Part shown: positions 13,356 through 29,768 of the stretch, one piece after another
How positions within the stretch are numbered: the stretch's first letter is position 1
Layout: the number at the start of each line of letters is the position of its first letter
IMG/VR virus record: IMGVR_UViG_3300016665_000418
Location: 1 to 50,654 of that record
DNA from: a virus
Taxonomy: Duplodnaviria; Caudoviricetes
Direction: 5' to 3' (one strand)
Length of the DNA: 50,654 nt
The notes under the pieces: generated by a model
Database searches by the model: none
Seen by the model: the letters and a program-made list of their open reading frames with translations, nothing else
What the model was told of the DNA's origin: nothing
Position numbers and translations under genes: made by a program

Positions 13356-13730
13356 ATGCCAAGAAAAAAAGTAGACTATAAAATTCCATTCATCAAGGAG
13401 AACGACAAGATAAACAATCTTCCAGCCGGGAGTGTTCCGCATCAAATTGGTCTTTATGAAATGCGTAAACCAAATTGGGAACTCAAATACGATTGGCGTG
13501 AAAACGTTAAGTTTGATGCTAACTTAAAATTTGTTAATATGTATTATGGCGGTAAGATACTTTGGGAAGATACAGAAACCGGCGCACGATATTGGATGAA
13601 TCAGAGTGGTCTTGCGGCTGTATTAAAAGCTAAATCAGTAGTTTATGGAACAGTTTTAGGAACATGGGTCTTTAAGAAACATGGAACCACTTATAGTATC
13701 TTTCCATATATGGAAAAGAGAAGGGGATGA
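13356..13730 (+). CDS. Hypothetical protein; last codons and stop lie inside the tmRNA 5' end
   Basis: 124-aa ORF ending AGG GGA TGA at 13722-13730. Confidence 0.75.
   Translation: MPRKKVDYKIPFIKENDKINNLPAGSVPHQIGLYEMRKPNWELKYDWRENVKFDANLKFVNMYYGGKILWEDTETGARYWMNQSGLAAVLKAKSVVYGTVLGTWVFKKHGTTYSIFPYMEKRRG
13671..13699 (+). promoter_or_regulatory. Putative tmRNA promoter
   Basis: TTTAAG-17-TAGTAT within the upstream ORF. Confidence 0.45.
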
Positions 13731-14075
13731 AATAGATTCGATCAGGAAATGAAGGATGATTTGCATAGTAGCGGGCGTTTATGACCGCTTAAAACCGTAA
13801 ACAACAGTAAGTGCAAACGATAGCTCTTACGCTCTTGCTGCTTGAAAGCAAGCGATTTAAAAGATACGCCGTTTGAGGATCCTTAAATCGTCATTAAACA
13901 AACTCGACCTTGTAGGGATAGTTCCTACTGCCAAGGTTTAAATAATTGGAACCATATCATACACAACCTGCTCTTTGGTCAAGTATATGATGGGTAATAA
14001 ATAAAAGAGATATACTATGTGACAACAGATCATTTGGAGCTTCTTGAGACTGCGGTGCGAATCCGCACATCTCCA
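13723..14075 (+). ncRNA. ssrA: tmRNA (one-piece), tag ANDSSYALAA
   Basis: Acceptor GGGGATG/CATCTCC-A with G3.U70; T-arm TGCGG-TGCGAAT-CCGCA; tag ORF 13813-13845 after TAAGT resume context; 353 nt. Confidence 0.96.
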
Positions 14076-14107
14076 TTTTGCCTTATTTTATAAAGCTTTT
14101 TTATTAC

Positions 14108-15204: not shown

Positions 15205-16521
15205 ATGTTCTGGGATACGATTAATCAGGCTTTCGCACAATATATTCCAACCTATACGGATGGAACGCAAGTTTCCGTTGTTGGACGTGTTCTGTCTTAT
15301 CGTAAGATGGGTGGTGTAGCATTCGGTCATATTTCTGACAATAGTGATGCAAAGATCCAATTTGCATTTAATAAGAAGATGATGGATGAAGCCAACTTCA
15401 AGGAATGGTCAGCTATCCCTCATATTGGCGATATTGTTGGGATTAACGGGGAGGTATGGACTACCTCTACCGGAGAAAAGACTGTATTGGTCAATAAGGG
15501 CTTCCAGAGGCTCCAGAAGGCTTCTGTAGGCTTCCCTGACAAGTGGCATGGTATGACCGATCCAGAGCTTGTAAGGCGCAAGAGGTGGCTGGAATGCGCC
15601 ACTAATCCAGAGAGTCGCAAGCTATATCGGAATAGGAGTAAGCTAATCAATACTATTCGTAACTTCCTTGATGAACAGGATTTTATGGAAGTGGAGACGC
15701 CTACGCTTACTCCGCAAGCAAGTGGCGCCCAGGCTCGTCCGTTTGTCACTCATCATAATGCTCTTGATGCAGATTTCTATCTTCGTATTGCGCCCGAGAC
15801 TTATCTTAAGCGTATGACTGCTGCTGGTTTTGATCGTGTATTCGAGATTGGCAAGCAGTTCCGAAATGAAGGTATTGATCCATCGCATCTACAGGAGTTT
15901 ACTTCTCTTGAATGGTATGCATCATATTGGGATTATTGTGATAACATGAAGCTTTTCCGAAATATGCTTTATTATCTTTGGAAGAGCTTTGATAGAACAG
16001 AAAAGGATATTCTTGCCAAGCTTGAAAGTTGGGCACAGGCACCAGTTGTAGAATATCGTCAACTATTCATGGAACATACTGGACGTAATCCAGATGATAT
16101 GTCTGGCAAGGAAGCGGATCAGCTATTCAAGACCGCTGTTCGTCCAAAGCTTATTGATCCAGTATTCATCACAGATTATCCGGCTCATATGTCTCCAATG
16201 GCAGCAAGGCATCCCCATGACCCTAATACGGTTCAGCAATGGCAGTTTGTTGTAGATGGATGGGAAGTGGTTAAGTGTTATACAGAGCTTACTGATCCCC
16301 TTCTACAGCGTCAGCTACTTGAGCAGCAGATGCAAGAGCGAGCAAATGGCGATGATGAAGCCATGATGATTGAGGAAGATTTCCTTGAATGCATGGAGCA
16401 CGGGATGCCTCCGCAGAGTGGTTGTGGTGTTGGAATTGACCGTTTGGCTTCTCTACTTTTCGGCGTCCCCAATCTACGTGATGTAGTATTCTTCCCTACA
16501 CTTAAGGCAAATAGCCAATGA
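15205..16521 (+). CDS. lysS: Lysyl-tRNA synthetase, class II
   Basis: OB-fold (GDIVGING), YLRIAPETYLKR, FRNEGID..H.QEFT, HGMPPQSGCGVGIDRL. Confidence 0.95.
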   Translation: MFWDTINQAFAQYIPTYTDGTQVSVVGRVLSYRKMGGVAFGHISDNSDAKIQFAFNKKMMDEANFKEWSAIPHIGDIVGINGEVWTTSTGEKTVLVNKGFQRLQKASVGFPDKWHGMTDPELVRRKRWLECATNPESRKLYRNRSKLINTIRNFLDEQDFMEVETPTLTPQASGAQARPFVTHHNALDADFYLRIAPETYLKRMTAAGFDRVFEIGKQFRNEGIDPSHLQEFTSLEWYASYWDYCDNMKLFRNMLYYLWKSFDRTEKDILAKLESWAQAPVVEYRQLFMEHTGRNPDDMSGKEADQLFKTAVRPKLIDPVFITDYPAHMSPMAARHPHDPNTVQQWQFVVDGWEVVKCYTELTDPLLQRQLLEQQMQERANGDDEAMMIEEDFLECMEHGMPPQSGCGVGIDRLASLLFGVPNLRDVVFFPTLKANSQ

Positions 16522-18215: not shown

Positions 18216-19054
18216 AGAAGAAAGAAAATAAAATGCCTCGTTCAAACTCTGTATTTACTATCAGTTCCAGCCGTCTACTTGACAGTATTTGTTCCGAAGA
18301 AAAGTTTACGTCAAAGACCAATCTGGAACAAATTGAGTATCTAAACAAGTATCGTTCTCGCCGTGGTCTATATCGCTGGGGTCGTAATAGCATCATGGAT
18401 AACGTTATTGATGATCAGCCTGGAAAGACCGTAACATTTAATCCTATTCGTTGGAAGGGACAGCCATGCAATCCCATCACGTTTCGGTATGTAGGTGGTG
18501 ATATTGAATATAGTATCCGATATCCGGTGCAGAGCCGTCCCGGTTTGGATCCGGATAGTATTAATGGTGTTATCTACGATTTTATCCCTAATGGCGATGC
18601 CTATATTGAGCGTAGTGTGAAGGGATTTCTTCGTCATGGTGTTAGGTCGCAATGGGGCACTAATGAAGAGCATGATAAGCTTTTCAAGTATCTTTATAAG
18701 CAGTATGAAAATGCATGGCTTGATCTAAAGCGCCGTAAGGTTGCAGAGATTAAGTCAACGCTTAACACAGAAAGTGTTGACGAGTTTATTGCAGCAAAGC
18801 GTGCCCAGCATACCCAGGCTATCATGGATATTGCAATGTCTGTTGGCAATCTAACTGCAAAGCTTGAAACCTACCGTAATCGTATTGGTAGCGTCACTAC
18901 TGCATATGAAGCTGAAAAGCTTTATAACGAAGTAGAAATGGCATTCCGAAACTTCAACTATGTTCAAGAACGCAACACAAAGCGTCTAAATAAGAATGTT
19001 CGGCTTCCTGGCGGTAAGAACGTTAAGAAGCTTGCAAGTGAAGGCGACGAGTGA
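18212..19054 (+). CDS. Hypothetical protein
   Basis: 280-aa ORF; alternative ATG at 18233. Confidence 0.8.
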   Translation: MKKKENKMPRSNSVFTISSSRLLDSICSEEKFTSKTNLEQIEYLNKYRSRRGLYRWGRNSIMDNVIDDQPGKTVTFNPIRWKGQPCNPITFRYVGGDIEYSIRYPVQSRPGLDPDSINGVIYDFIPNGDAYIERSVKGFLRHGVRSQWGTNEEHDKLFKYLYKQYENAWLDLKRRKVAEIKSTLNTESVDEFIAAKRAQHTQAIMDIAMSVGNLTAKLETYRNRIGSVTTAYEAEKLYNEVEMAFRNFNYVQERNTKRLNKNVRLPGGKNVKKLASEGDE

Positions 19055-19069
19055 AAGTTAAAAAAATAG

Positions 19070-19098
19070 TTTACAAAGTTAACTTCCTCAACTATATT
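19070..19098 (+). promoter_or_regulatory. Sigma70-type promoter for the tRNA-Ala/ncRNA unit
   Basis: A-tract + TTTACA-17-TATATT. Confidence 0.75.
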
Positions 19099-19115
19099 TA
19101 AAGAGTGAAGTGAAT

Positions 19116-19186
19116 GGGTCGGTAAGCTAATGGGAAACTGGTGCCTTTGCACGGCGCACTTGTGAGTTCGATTCTCACCCGATCCA
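19116..19186 (+). tRNA. tRNA-Ala(UGC)
   Basis: GGGTCGG/CCGATCC acceptor with G3.U70; GTGCC-TTTGCAC-GGCGC anticodon arm. Confidence 0.93.
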
Positions 19187-19204
19187 ATAGTTGATAACTT
19201 AATA

Positions 19205-19897
19205 TTTAGATCCTATCCGATGGACCGTTCATCGTCTTTGAGGTCCGATAAGGCAATGGGATTAAAGGAGCCGTAAGTAGCCGCCAGCGAACTAATGTTA
19301 AGATTATTATTTATTGGGTATAATGCTGGTTGGGGAAAATCAAGAGCAATCTTGTAAATCGGAAATATTATAATATGTAACCCTAACATGATGATTAGGG
19401 ATAATCAGAAGCGACCTGATTAGCCGTGAAGATCAAGGTATTCCTTTCTTGATAATAATGGTGACAAAGCCCCTTCTCGGGAAAGAGAACGCAGATAGAA
19501 GCGTTAAGCAAGCAAGCCTACTTGTTTATGTTTATGGAACTTGTATCTATCATTTTTATAAACTCAGTATACTGTATGTGCGATGTATGATATGCTGAGT
19601 TTATATTCCGCTTTAGCTCAGTTGGTAGAGCGTTCGGCTGTGGAGGTTGAATACGTGTTCTGTTGGTGCAAACCCAAAAACCTCAAGGATAACCGGATGG
19701 TCCCTGGTTCGAGTCCAGGAGGCGGAGTTTGACGTGTCATTTAGCAGGTGACTAATAAGGTTGGTTTCCTTATGATTGAAGCAGGGTTGCTCCTGTAATA
19801 AAAACTCCAAAGCCTGGAAGGCTCGTTGAGATAGCAGCGAAGTAGAAACTTATGGAGGGAACTTCACCCGTGGATATAAAGACTACACTATCATTTC
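19205..19897 (+). ncRNA. Large structured ncRNA (GOLLD-like candidate) surrounding a tRNA; boundaries approximate
   Basis: No plus-strand ORF; more than a dozen visible helices, a GNRA-capped hairpin, loop-loop and 3'-end pseudoknot complementarity; bounded by promoter and terminator. Confidence 0.65.
19607..19727 (+). tRNA. tRNA-Asn(GUU) with a 48-nt insertion (19642-19689) splitting the anticodon; alternative register gives His(GUG)
   Basis: TCCGCTT/AGGCGGA acceptor plus G73 (Asn-type); CTGT+TAA restores a 7-nt loop and a 73-nt tRNA. Confidence 0.8.
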
Positions 19898-19899
19898 AT

Positions 19900-19937
19900 A
19901 AGCCCCGATGTTTAACCGCATCGGGGTTTTATTTTTT
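19900..19937 (+). terminator. Intrinsic terminator
   Basis: AAGCCCCGATG/CATCGGGGTTT stem plus T-run. Confidence 0.85.
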
Positions 19938-19959
19938 GGTCAACTTATTTAGCAATGTC

Positions 19960-20682
19960 ATGCATAAAATATTTTTAATAGCTGCTCTTATATTGTTAAT
20001 ACCAAATGCGGCGTATGCATATACACAAAAATATACTTCAACCGGCAGATTGGTTCGTTGGAATCGTTCCGAAATTGAACTAACTGTCATTAGAGTTGAT
20101 AGTTGTCGTTCCTGTCCAGATGAAACAGAAGTTGTTGGTTCTTTACAAAGAGCGGCTTCAACATGGAACGAAATACCAACATCACCAACCATTAACATCA
20201 TAGAACGTTCTGGTAATTCAGAGTGGGGAATAGACGGTGTTAATGGAGTTTATTTTGTAAGAGATTGGCCATTTTCTTTTCGTGCATTGGCTATTACTCT
20301 AACCAGTTATAATGAAAATACTGGTGAGTTAATAGATACAGATGTAATCATCAACGGTGAAATGCCGTTTGGTTTGTCCGGAGAGAGAAATCAATATGAT
20401 TTAGATACTGTGCTTACTCATGAACTTGGACACGTTCTTGGATTGGACGAAAGTAGTGTCCCAGGTGCCACTATGTTTCCAAATACGAGAAGAGGCGAAA
20501 CTGATAGACGTGAGTTATCAACTGATGATGTAGATGGAATATTGTCCATATATCAAACTGTTCCTACTCCCGGTTGCAACATAACAAGAAGAAAAACTTC
20601 TTTTAATGGAAGCATCATTTTTTTGATATTGTTGCTTTTAGTCAGAAAATATTCAAGTTTCTTTTTTAAGCTATCAACATGA
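19960..20682 (+). CDS. Matrixin (M10)-family secreted metalloprotease with MYXO-CTERM-like tail
   Basis: Signal peptide, THELGHVLGL, Met-turn ATMFP, C-terminal GC...IIFLILLLLVRK; start moved to ATG 19960. Confidence 0.85.
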   Translation: MHKIFLIAALILLIPNAAYAYTQKYTSTGRLVRWNRSEIELTVIRVDSCRSCPDETEVVGSLQRAASTWNEIPTSPTINIIERSGNSEWGIDGVNGVYFVRDWPFSFRALAITLTSYNENTGELIDTDVIINGEMPFGLSGERNQYDLDTVLTHELGHVLGLDESSVPGATMFPNTRRGETDRRELSTDDVDGILSIYQTVPTPGCNITRRKTSFNGSIIFLILLLLVRKYSSFFFKLST

Positions 20683-25652: not shown

Positions 25653-25967
25653 ATGACGGATCGTATGGAATTGGTTGGTGTGGTTATGGATCATTCACGG
25701 GATATTTTCCGTGTTCGTGTAGACGGCACCGATCAGGTAGTGACTGCAAAGCTTTCTGGCAAGATGCGACAGAATAAGATTGATTTGCAGGTAGGGGACC
25801 GGGTTAAGCTTGAGGTGTCTCCTTACGATACGAGCATGGGACGTATTACCTTCCGTATTAGCAGTAGCCGAGAGCAGTATATTCATACTGATGATAATGA
25901 TCGTGGCGGCGATAATCGTAAGCGCAAGGCACATCGTCCTCGCCAGCGTGATAACGACGACGACTGA
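25653..25967 (+). CDS. infA: Translation initiation factor IF-1 with charged C-terminal extension
   Basis: FRVRV...A.LSGKMRQNKI....GDRV..EVSPYD...GRITFR. Confidence 0.93.
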   Translation: MTDRMELVGVVMDHSRDIFRVRVDGTDQVVTAKLSGKMRQNKIDLQVGDRVKLEVSPYDTSMGRITFRISSSREQYIHTDDNDRGGDNRKRKAHRPRQRDNDDD

Positions 25968-25992: not shown

Positions 25993-26514
25993 ATGTCAAT
26001 CGGACCTGATCTTTCGGGATTTACCCGTGATGAAATTTGTGATGCTTTGGATGAAGTGCGTCAGCCTGTAAGCATCGCAATCTTTGGTTCAAAGAACGAG
26101 TTTAATATCGGTGGTATGATTAGAACCGCCCATAACTTCCTAGTGCGAGATATTCATCTTGTGGAGGTTGAATGGTTCTATGAGAAGGGTGCGCTGTCTA
26201 CTCTACGCTTTGAGAAGCGGCACCTTAAGCGTTGGTCTACGCTTGATAGTTTCCTTCACGGAATGAAGAATCGTAATATTGTTTCTTTTGAGAAGCGAGA
26301 TAATCTAAAGACTTACGATATTCGTTCTTATCGTTATCCGGACAATCCCATTCTATTCTTTGGTAGTGAGAAGACAGGAGTTCCAGATAGTATTCTTGAA
26401 GCTTCTCATAGCGTTGTTACCATTCCTATTCTTGGACTGAATAATGATCACAACGTAAGCATTAGTTGCGGTATTGCTCTATACGATTGGTTCGCAAAGA
26501 ATTGTAAGGTGTGA
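25993..26514 (+). CDS. SpoU/TrmH-family RNA 2'-O-methyltransferase
   Basis: NIGGMIRTA, LFFGSEKTGV, IPILG...NVSISCGIALY. Confidence 0.9.
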   Translation: MSIGPDLSGFTRDEICDALDEVRQPVSIAIFGSKNEFNIGGMIRTAHNFLVRDIHLVEVEWFYEKGALSTLRFEKRHLKRWSTLDSFLHGMKNRNIVSFEKRDNLKTYDIRSYRYPDNPILFFGSEKTGVPDSILEASHSVVTIPILGLNNDHNVSISCGIALYDWFAKNCKV

Positions 26515-28040: not shown

Positions 28041-29768
28041 TCAATTCTCCTCTTCATTTACTATTACGGAGTTACAGGATAGAGTCAAGCCAATAACGCT
28101 GACTGCGTGCTCAAGTGCGTATCTTGTAACTTTAACTGGATCTATTATGCCTTCTGCTACTAAGTCACCATATGTGCCTTTAGCAGCATTGTATCCAAAA
28201 CGGCGTTCATCTTTATATGTGTCAGTTTTGGCTTTAAAATGTCTTACAGCAGAAACAAGGTCTTCTACATCGGCATTTTCTGTGTCAATGTAAAATACTT
28301 TGTGTCCAGTAAGACTAGTCTTTAGTCTTTGTTTAACAACATCTGGTGATGCTCCTGTGTTGCTAACGATGGTATTGAGTGGATATTCGCAAACGTTTGC
28401 AATAATTTCCATACCAGCTAATTCGTCTTGTGTTAAGTCTGAAGCAATAGTCTTTATGCGCTCTCTGAGATTATTAGCAGCGTAGTAAAGAGCAGTGCCA
28501 CCGCCAGGAACAATACCTTCTTGTGTAGCTGCCAATGTCGCATTTACTGCATCCTCTACTCTATCTTTCTTTTCCAAAATCTCTACTTCAGTTGAACCAC
28601 CAACCTTGATCACTGCAACGCCACCAGAGAGCCGTGCTAGCCTTTTACGGTATTTGTCAACGTGTAGGGCATCCAAGGTCTTATCTTCGATTAAAGAGGT
28701 TCTAAGAGCCTTTATACGGTCTTCTAGAGCGGTCTTACGGTCGCCATCTAGGTCGCTGATGATTGTAGTCGTGTTTCTTCCTATAATAACCTTCTTAGCA
28801 GAACCAAGATGATTAAGATTTGCTTTCTTAAGAGTCAAATCAGTTGTGGCGTTGAATACGGTGCCACCTGTTAAGGTTTGAATGTCTGAAAGGATATCTG
28901 CACGATGTTCACCATAACTTGGAGCCTTAATAGCACAAACCTTTACAACACCCTTTGTCTTATTAACGATAAGAGTGTGAAGTGCTTCGCCTTCTACATC
29001 ATCTGCAATGATAAGAAGTGGACGTGAGGTTTTAAGAACGCCTTCCAATAATCCAATAATATCCTGTATTGAGGATATTTTATTTGGAGTCATTAGAACA
29101 TATGGATTTTCAAGTTCACAGGTAGCACGTTCTGAATTTGTGATAAAGAATGGTGAAACGTATCCACTATCCAATTGCATACCTTCCACGATATCAAGAG
29201 TAGTTTCAACACTTTTAGCTGGCTCTACTGTTATGATACCATCATTGCCAACACGCTCAATAGCAGTAGCCAACAATTCACCAATGGAACGATCGCCATT
29301 AGCAGAAATTGTTCCGACATTAACAATATCTTCTCGAGACGAAAGAGGAATTGAAGTTTGCTTAAGATGTTTTATAACAATATCCGTCGCATAATCCATT
29401 CCTTTTTTAATATCAATAGCAGATCGTCCTGTAGAAATCATCTTAAGACCTTCTGTAAAGATAGCATGACCTAATACTGTAGCAGTGGTAGTACCATCGC
29501 CTGCAATATCATTTGTTTTAGATGCAACTTCTTTAAGGAGTTCGGCTCCCATTGATTGAAGTTTATCTTTAAGATTGATTGATTTAGCTACAGTTACTCC
29601 GTCTTTTGTTATGAGCGGAGGTCCGGTTTCCATGTCAATAATAACTGAGTGACCGGATGGACCCATGGTAGAAGCTACAGCGTTTGCAAGGACTGTAGCT
29701 CCTTTGTATAGTTCTTCATGGGCTTTAGGAAAGAAAACAACTCGTTGACTGGGAGGTTGATTGCTCAT
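28041..29768 (-). CDS. groEL: Chaperonin GroEL
   Basis: [45 protein letters not shown]. Confidence 0.97.

Follow-up and report, generated by a model that had tools for sequence, protein, structure and literature searches.

A minimal tRNA nested in the anticodon of a phage tRNA-Asn gene belongs to a large family of tRNA-in-tRNA inserts

Introduction

To our knowledge, bacterial tRNA introns are taken to be self-splicing, and group I introns between bases 35 and 36 have reportedly been found in Patescibacteria. The introns removed by EndA/TSEN in archaea and eukaryotes are short, protein-dependent and located in the anticodon loop, properties that the insert described here shares or, as to the dependence on proteins, would share. 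The closest described counterparts of this insert are the "enigmatic" tRNA introns of the Lak megaphages, one of which may encode a tRNA (Devoto et al. 2019, PMC6784885, Table S6). Like the present insert, these are short, are not of the group I type and are located in the anticodon loops of phage tRNAs, and insert-free alleles exist; all four introns listed in Table S6 end, when inspected by eye, in a T-arm and an acceptor-like stem. They measure about 80-115 nt, have a 5' leader hairpin and have N73 as their apparent end, and the accessible part of the Lak paper gives no boundary rule, family or mechanism. The Lak intron gene labeled "Tyr(GTA)" in the same table reads better, by eye, as a tRNA-Asn split at 35/36 and having G73. 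In a more recent report it is mentioned that jumbo-phage tRNA introns "could encode another tRNA" (PMC13037316, 2026); its accessible text concerns tRNA-finder output for alternatively coded phages and includes no structure, register, minimal forms or mechanism. Beyond such passing mentions, no described family or mechanism for these inserts was found in the literature searched, which was mostly open-access.

A related process is phage tRNA repair, in which Pnkp and Rnl1 act after attack by an anticodon nuclease (PMC7824862). According to the accessible text of that paper, an ATP-dependent ligase reseals the anticodon loop, and such genes are also present in the phages that carry the inserts; repair closes a nick made by the host, whereas here a genome-encoded insert would be removed. 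In this work, it is described how a phage tRNA-Asn(GUU) gene is split at 35/36 by a 48-nt insert that is real, conserved and tRNA-shaped. The insert is one of the smallest forms in a large family, so far barely described, in which one tRNA is nested in the anticodon of another.

Results

The window, being the whole stretch of DNA that was analyzed, is an entire virus record of 50,654 bases with a completeness of 14%. It belongs to a T4-like large phage, with portal, Gp23, terminase, tmRNA, six intact tRNAs, IF1 and a class II synthetase present, and the largest share of its words is found in freshwater, lagoon, aquaculture and estuary metagenome runs. Phage-encoded are the tmRNA (13723-14078), IF1 (25653-25967), a SpoU-family methylase (25993-26514), a chaperonin (28041-29768) and the class II synthetase (15205-16521). 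For the latter, identity as AsnRS was considered and rejected; the protein is LysRS-like and therefore gives no support for the Asn identity of the split tRNA. A sigma-70-like promoter was read by eye at 19070-19098, before a tRNA-Ala gene.

The split gene is detected by the Rfam tRNA model at 19607-19727 (51.4 bits), with extra bases within the anticodon loop; it is missed by ARAGORN in default mode and called Ile in intron mode. All its parts are on the plus strand. The 5' exon of the outer tRNA-Asn (19607-19641) comprises positions 1-35, with U35 as the last base, and the 3' exon (19690-19727) comprises positions 36-73, with G73. The 48-nt insert between them (19642-19689) is a degenerate inner tRNA that runs from position 1 to position 76. 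It begins with the 5' strand of the inner acceptor stem (19642-19648), in which G1 is mismatched with A72 and positions 2-7 are paired, and continues with a 13-nt linker (19649-19661), variable across the family, in place of the D and anticodon arms. The inner T-arm (19662-19678) has a stem of 19662-19666 and 19674-19678, with four of the five pairs formed, and a 7-nt loop (19667-19673), and is followed by the 3' strand of the acceptor stem (19679-19685), the discriminator A73 (19686) and, at 19687-19689, positions 74-76, where many family members have CCA but this insert does not.

The whole 121-nt gene is identical in the metagenome contig L009, of which the upstream 506 nt are only 95.1% identical to the window, and contigs of the runs X5 (covering 19603-19730) and X7 (19613-19719) match the gene with 0 differences. 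The insert is not an assembly error, because it is identical in L009, X5 and X7, which are three independent datasets. This is in agreement with a first-pass annotation of this DNA, in which the gene had been seen as an otherwise intact tRNA with an insert splitting its anticodon.

The same annotation had proposed a minihelix-like fold for the insert, with a closing stem, a T-arm-like hairpin and a small inner hairpin. Of these, the closing stem (19643-19648 with 19679-19684) is indeed present in the sequence, as is the T-arm-like hairpin (19662-19678), whereas the small inner hairpin is not conserved. When the insert is folded alone, its stability is that of its shuffles (z 0.00; 89 of the 200 shuffles are equally stable), and only the closing stem is retained in the centroid. 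The mini-tRNA shape rests therefore on the family comparison, by which the minihelix is recognized as an inner tRNA spanning positions 1-76.

It had also been suggested that the splice register decides between Asn and His, as deletion of 19642-19689 gives the loop CUGUUAA (Asn), and deletion of 19643-19690 gives CUGUGAA (His). A third register, absent from the earlier annotation, gives Ile(GAU) when 48 nt are deleted from 19640 or 19641. Nine distinct relatives of the window were found via a neighboring protein and a motif of the flanking RNA. In their tRNA-Asn slot, six have an intact tRNA-Asn (L001, L002, L005, L011, L012 and L013), L003 and L006 are each interrupted at 35/36 by a full group I intron and L009 has the same insert as the window; the anticodon arm of L002 is identical to that of the window and has no insert. 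In three of the four DNA runs (X3, X4 and X7), DNA contigs join 19641 to 19690, skipping the 48 nt unambiguously; at the 80% threshold of this search, some of the joined contigs may be tRNA-Asn genes of other organisms, the register being unchanged either way. In DNA alleles without the insert, the joint falls at 35/36, which is the Asn register, and the gene is therefore a tRNA-Asn(GUU) and not a tRNA-His. This supports the removal of 19642-19689 as the proper register but not the proposed switch between Asn and His, since Asn is the identity of the DNA alleles without insert as well as of every intact orthologue.

A strict scaffold pattern matched 0 loci in viruses, and a looser pattern was required, in which the outer tRNA-Asn is fixed and any insert of 35-65 nt is allowed, the insert itself being unconstrained. 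This pattern matched 90 viral loci, corresponding to 59 distinct rows including that of the window and to 34 true tRNA-Asn genes, and an inner acceptor stem and T-arm are found in 32 of these 34 genes with a 35-65 nt insert. Two scans that are free of the anticodon register (47 and 76 loci) extended the family to other tRNAs, and a scan anchored on the inner CCA, with the 5' side free, gave at least 124 loci (about 190 estimated). The loci that were not parsed number 35 of 90 for the Asn pattern, 33 of 47 and 24 of 75 for the register-free scans and, among the matches listed, 79 of 124 for the CCA-anchored scan; those of the Asn-pattern and register-free scans are mostly tandem tRNAs or chance matches, with a few unclear inserts. 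With a fixed-geometry parser, at least 95 distinct outer tRNAs in at least 56 insert clusters were obtained.

The boundaries of the inserts coincide with the ends of the inner tRNA. Among the matches listed, which form 56 clusters, the insert comprises inner positions 1-76 in 43 clusters, 1-73 in 5 and neither in 8, and in two of these last eight a 5-nt leader precedes the inner stem. Where the 5' side had been left unconstrained, exact ends are found in 25 of the 26 clusters among the matches listed, compared with 1.24 expected by shuffling; the corresponding values are 19 of 22 clusters (1.31 expected) for the register-free scans and 11 of 16 clusters (1.04 expected) for the third scan type. 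Removal of the insert generates a tRNA according to ARAGORN in all 48 exact clusters among the matches listed, the outer tRNAs being Asn (19), Lys (10), Thr (8), Ile (6), Arg (2) and Leu, Glu and Gln (1 each), with the insertion sites 34/35, 35/36 and 36/37. In the same 48 clusters of listed matches, the base before the insert is U in 43, U at -1 being preferred by bacterial RNase P, and 7 of the inserts are themselves called as tRNAs. At one extreme, the inserts are complete tRNAs ending in CCA; at the other, as in the window, they are reduced to an acceptor stem plus T-arm. Four of the seven inserts that are called as tRNAs are complete, ordinary-looking, CCA-ended Gly, Asn, Asp and Phe tRNAs, nested exactly in the anticodon of another tRNA (loci L258, L282, L326 and L342).

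The insert of the window belongs to a reduced Asn subclass, which has no CCA and in which the 1-72 pair is broken in 12 of the 13 rows. When RNAalifold is applied to a sequence-only alignment of 13 Asn-type members, both inner stems are recovered, with compensatory changes in 13 of the 15 pairs, and the covariation score is 0.906, as compared with 0.241 for shuffled and at most 0.229 for slid alignments, for rows that were picked by a parser that requires paired stems. The outer anticodon stem of these 13 members is 100% paired, also with compensatory changes. In 185,579 prokaryote genomes, the Asn pattern matches only 4 MAG contigs, and the nested arrangement is therefore essentially a phage feature. 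These four bacterial MAG contigs (L353-L356), which may be of phage origin, fit the split-Asn pattern, and L354 has two nested inserts. The sequences thus show where the insert begins and ends, how it folds (from covariation), that its register is Asn and that it belongs to a family.

RNA-processing genes were surveyed in the records of 36 carriers and 11 controls, the ligases searched for including an OB-fold family that was confirmed by homology. RtcB is present in 0 of the 36 carriers and in 1 of the 11 controls, which gives no support to RtcB as the sealing ligase; Rnl1 is found in 16 of the 36 carriers and in 2 of the 11 controls. An ATP-dependent RNA ligase-like gene (Rnl1, Rnl2-family or OB-fold) is present in 33 of 36 carriers and 4 of 11 controls, and in 26 of the 26 carriers that are at least 90% complete, as compared with 3 of the 5 complete controls (p 0.02), in a comparison for which the controls are few and unmatched, the carriers are phylogenetically non-independent and several Rnl2-family matches may be DNA ligases. 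RNA ligases are common in large phages (PMC7824862, as far as its accessible text goes), and some Rnl2-family matches are not separated from DNA ligases, and for these reasons the association is weak support. No ligase was found in the window contig and four relatives, all of which are fragments (11-25% complete).

In 50 phage records, an EndA-type endonuclease (PF01974) is found in none, no RNase P RNA scores over the cut-off and a single partial match to an RNase Z-like gene occurs, in a carrier; the cuts would therefore be made by host enzymes or by an unrecognized protein. When the neighborhoods were clustered (20 kb per genome), no family besides homing endonucleases was found in more than 7 of the 37. 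RNA-repair genes were noted in several carriers (L397, L398, L378, L384 and L385): an OB-fold RNA ligase has either RlaP or a Pnkp-like kinase as its neighbor, and a DUF2828 protein was noted as well.

An intact tRNA-Asn gene elsewhere is found in 3 of the 22 split-Asn carriers, as compared with 9 of the 14 other carriers (p 0.003); a fourth match in the split-Asn carriers is not tRNA-looking, and counting it gives p 0.011. A search for cultured carriers found none beyond the phage Atu_ph07, which has an unannotated insert of the same reduced Asn subclass (tRNA-Asn at 323899-324029 of MF403008.1), together with Rnl1 and Rnl2 matches. In the accessible text of its description, Asn and Thr are reported as the only amino acids for which Atu_ph07 has no tRNA (PMC6102473). 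A split tRNA-Thr had therefore been predicted for this phage, but this was not confirmed: a second 48-nt insert (L403; G011:C1, about 68150-68290, minus strand) lies in a tRNA for which Lys(UUU) is the best reading, the register not being unique and Thr(UGU) being a possible alternative. Four RNA runs with small shares of the window's words cover only the flanking RNA of relatives and other tRNAs, the insert and the joint being uncovered.

The split gene is flanked on the plus strand by a conserved, structured non-coding RNA upstream (19190-19606), which has no Rfam match, and by a conserved non-coding RNA downstream (19728-19935), with a terminator-like hairpin at its end; both are treated here as context and not as part of the mechanism. 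The flanking RNA folds well (z -4.76), is without an Rfam match on both sides of the gene and is conserved in the relatives whatever the allele, the upstream part being found in all 9 relatives and the downstream part being lost in L009 and cut off in L005. No match to GOLLD or ROOL was obtained with Rfam up to E 10 in 19040-19960, and the flanking RNA is absent from the neighborhoods of 36 other carriers. A 7-nt stretch of the upstream RNA that is complementary to the 5' exon was considered as a trans guide and rejected, as it varies among relatives, and apparent long-range pairings across the tRNA resolve by eye into local hairpins in the relatives. The flanking RNA had been suggested as the catalyst in the first-pass annotation; its presence whatever the allele, its absence near the 36 carriers and the unconserved guide candidate all speak against this, and it is a feature separate from the insert.

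Related genes lie directly upstream of the interrupted alleles of relatives, those of L009 and L006 having 120 aa and being 80% identical and that of L003 being 46% identical; among them, only that of L006 has an HNH match, which is weak and below the cut-off. The window has no such HNH-like gene, and none is found at that position in the six intact alleles. The same putative nuclease therefore accompanies interruptions of two unrelated kinds in a single place. Across the whole family, proximity of HNH genes is not significant (11 of 40 vs 76 of 449, p 0.13). The tRNA-Asn body is swapped between relatives (L001, L003, L005, L006 and L009), and partial tRNA ends lie beside nuclease-like genes; the slot is a replacement hot spot. 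Elsewhere in a relative, a group I intron occurs outside a tRNA (L104; G003:C1:55760-56053).

Discussion

The comparison with the described systems shows both likeness and difference. As for the Lak introns, removal of the window insert restores a 7-nt loop, the insert has a tRNA-like structure and an insert-free allele exists (L002; X3, X4 and X7). The 5' leader hairpin and the N73 3' end are not found here: with its 48 nt, the insert is leaderless and ends at position 76. Group I introns (RF00028) occupy the same 35/36 site in L003 and L006 and also have a U ahead of the 5' splice site, but the window insert has 48 nt as compared with about 200 nt and has no catalytic core, guide sequence or terminal G. 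When the P3-P9 core is searched for, no RF00028 match up to E 10 is obtained for the window insert, as compared with 67 bits for the L003 and L006 introns, and the insert ends in A and has no guide, whereas a terminal G and a guide are present in L003. The archaeal and eukaryal introns differ in having a bulge-helix-bulge (BHB) motif and in their location at 37/38: in the window, 5 nt (5' strand) and 8 nt (3' strand) lie between the flanking helices, with no 4-bp helix, and the carriers are without EndA and RtcB.

It is likely that the insert is spliced out by one route or another. The insert retains the stacked acceptor stem and T-arm, the portion by which RNase P and RNase Z recognize a tRNA. 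Both enzymes leave 3'-OH and 5'-phosphate ends, which are suited to ATP-dependent ligases and not to RtcB. The preferred route, to which a probability of about 0.55 is assigned, consists of a cut by host RNase P at position 1, a nuclease cut after position 76 and joining of the halves by an ATP-dependent RNA ligase. In the first step, host RNase P would measure 12 bp from the inner T-loop and cut at inner position 1, which is the exact 5' splice site, leaving the 5' exon with a 3'-OH; in its geometry, the insert fits a bacterial RNase P substrate, with 10 of 12 pairs, a T-loop and position 1 at the splice site. In the second step, the weakest of the three, an endonuclease would cut after inner position 76, leaving a 5'-phosphate on the 3' exon; in the shorter class, the cut would be after position 73, which is the cutting point of RNase Z. 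A phage ligase of the Rnl1 or Rnl2 type would then join the 3'-OH and the 5'-phosphate, with no end healing, and generate the mature tRNA-Asn. The suggestion in the first-pass annotation of an uncharacterized splicing route, via RNase P/Z-like cuts and a ligase, is supported. The arrangement may have originated by insertion of a whole CCA-ended tRNA at an anticodon break, followed by loss of the parts that are not read by the processing enzymes, and in the window's clade the adjacent HNH-like gene may aid the spread of interrupted alleles.

In favor of the 3' cut, RNase Z is known to cleave behind N73, and the enzyme of Thermotoga to do so behind CCA (PMC3161902, in its accessible part). Several observations count against this route. 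According to the same paper, precursors with CCA are usually trimmed by exonucleases, and most RNase Z enzymes are inhibited by CCA. Exonuclease trimming is at odds with the route because the 3' exon would be destroyed. The window insert is without CCA though it ends at position 76, and no enzyme was found for the cut after 76. The members with a 5-nt leader also count against it, because RNase P alone would miss the splice site.

It is possible, though rather unlikely, that the insert is never spliced. The phage tRNA-Asn would then be disabled, or host enzymes acting on the inner tRNA would simply produce two halves of the outer one or a decoy shaped like a tRNA, and the nested form would be what is left of a tRNA that had been ligated into a broken anticodon and was maintained by homing or drift. 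A decoy had also been considered in the first-pass annotation. Phages can often do without their tRNAs, and spliced RNA is not seen in the four RNA runs, whose contigs do not cover the insert. Insertion of a mature tRNA would equally give exact 1-76 boundaries. The identity of insert and exons among relatives with 5% flank difference fits a recent spread, and an HNH-like gene is directly upstream in L003, L006 and L009, although this proximity is not significantly enriched family-wide. Against this reading, the outer stems are fully paired, with compensatory changes across divergent lineages, while the inner tRNA loses its D and anticodon arms yet keeps its exact ends, and the split copy is usually the sole Asn gene. 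Different chemistry is considered unlikely as well: a dedicated nuclease of phage or host, reading the inner T-arm, would leave cyclic-phosphate ends that are healed by Pnkp before ligation, or a single enzyme would perform a direct exchange of the ends. This would agree with a boundary at 76 that holds with or without CCA, with the existence of leader-bearing members and with the Pnkp-like kinases, RlaP and ligases near some carriers. However, only homing endonucleases are common to more than 7 of the 37 neighborhoods (20 kb per genome), EndA-type endonucleases are found in 0 of 50 records and the carriers are very different phages.

The two remaining explanations are much less probable. That the insert is a group I intron remnant, or that a ribozyme of group I type, for example the flanking large RNA, removes it in trans, is highly improbable: the full introns that L003 and L006 have at 35/36 of the orthologous gene and the U before the 5' splice site suggest a relationship, but the insert lacks the RF00028 match, the terminal G and the internal guide sequence mentioned above, does not resemble these two introns when compared by eye and has terminal bases that vary across the family. 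For action in trans, the guide candidate in the flanking RNA varies among relatives and this RNA is absent near 36 other carriers. HDV-like and hammerhead consensus layouts, compared by eye, do not fit, and there is no Rfam ribozyme match. Most improbable of all is the use of alternative registers, by which tRNA-His (or Ile) would be made besides or instead of tRNA-Asn. Shifting the 48-nt deletion by one or two bases does give His or Ile loops, but the DNA joint is unambiguous, the intact orthologues are Asn in six of six cases, the exons match tRNA-Asn of cultured phages and the bases needed for His or Ile anticodons vary in the family, whereas CUGU and UAA are fixed.

Splicing by RNase P, a second nuclease and a ligase remains the preferred reading, and it predicts the cut sites and the end chemistry sharply; the cultured phage Atu_ph07 carries an insert of the same type. 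As illustrated by the present gene, which is either missed or called Ile, tRNA finders miss or mislabel such genes. The balance of the evidence leans toward a further kind of tRNA splicing in large phages, different from the group I, group II and EndA routes, in which the intron is itself a tRNA, whole or reduced to what the maturation enzymes recognize, is excised by maturation and leaves an anticodon that is rebuilt by an ATP-dependent RNA ligase. If true, this would be a new splicing route in which RNase P becomes a splicing enzyme, and it would explain the Lak introns as well as the tRNAs reported missing from some jumbo phages. A single transcript could then be the source of both an inner and an outer tRNA, and without the phage ligase the split anticodon would not be assembled.
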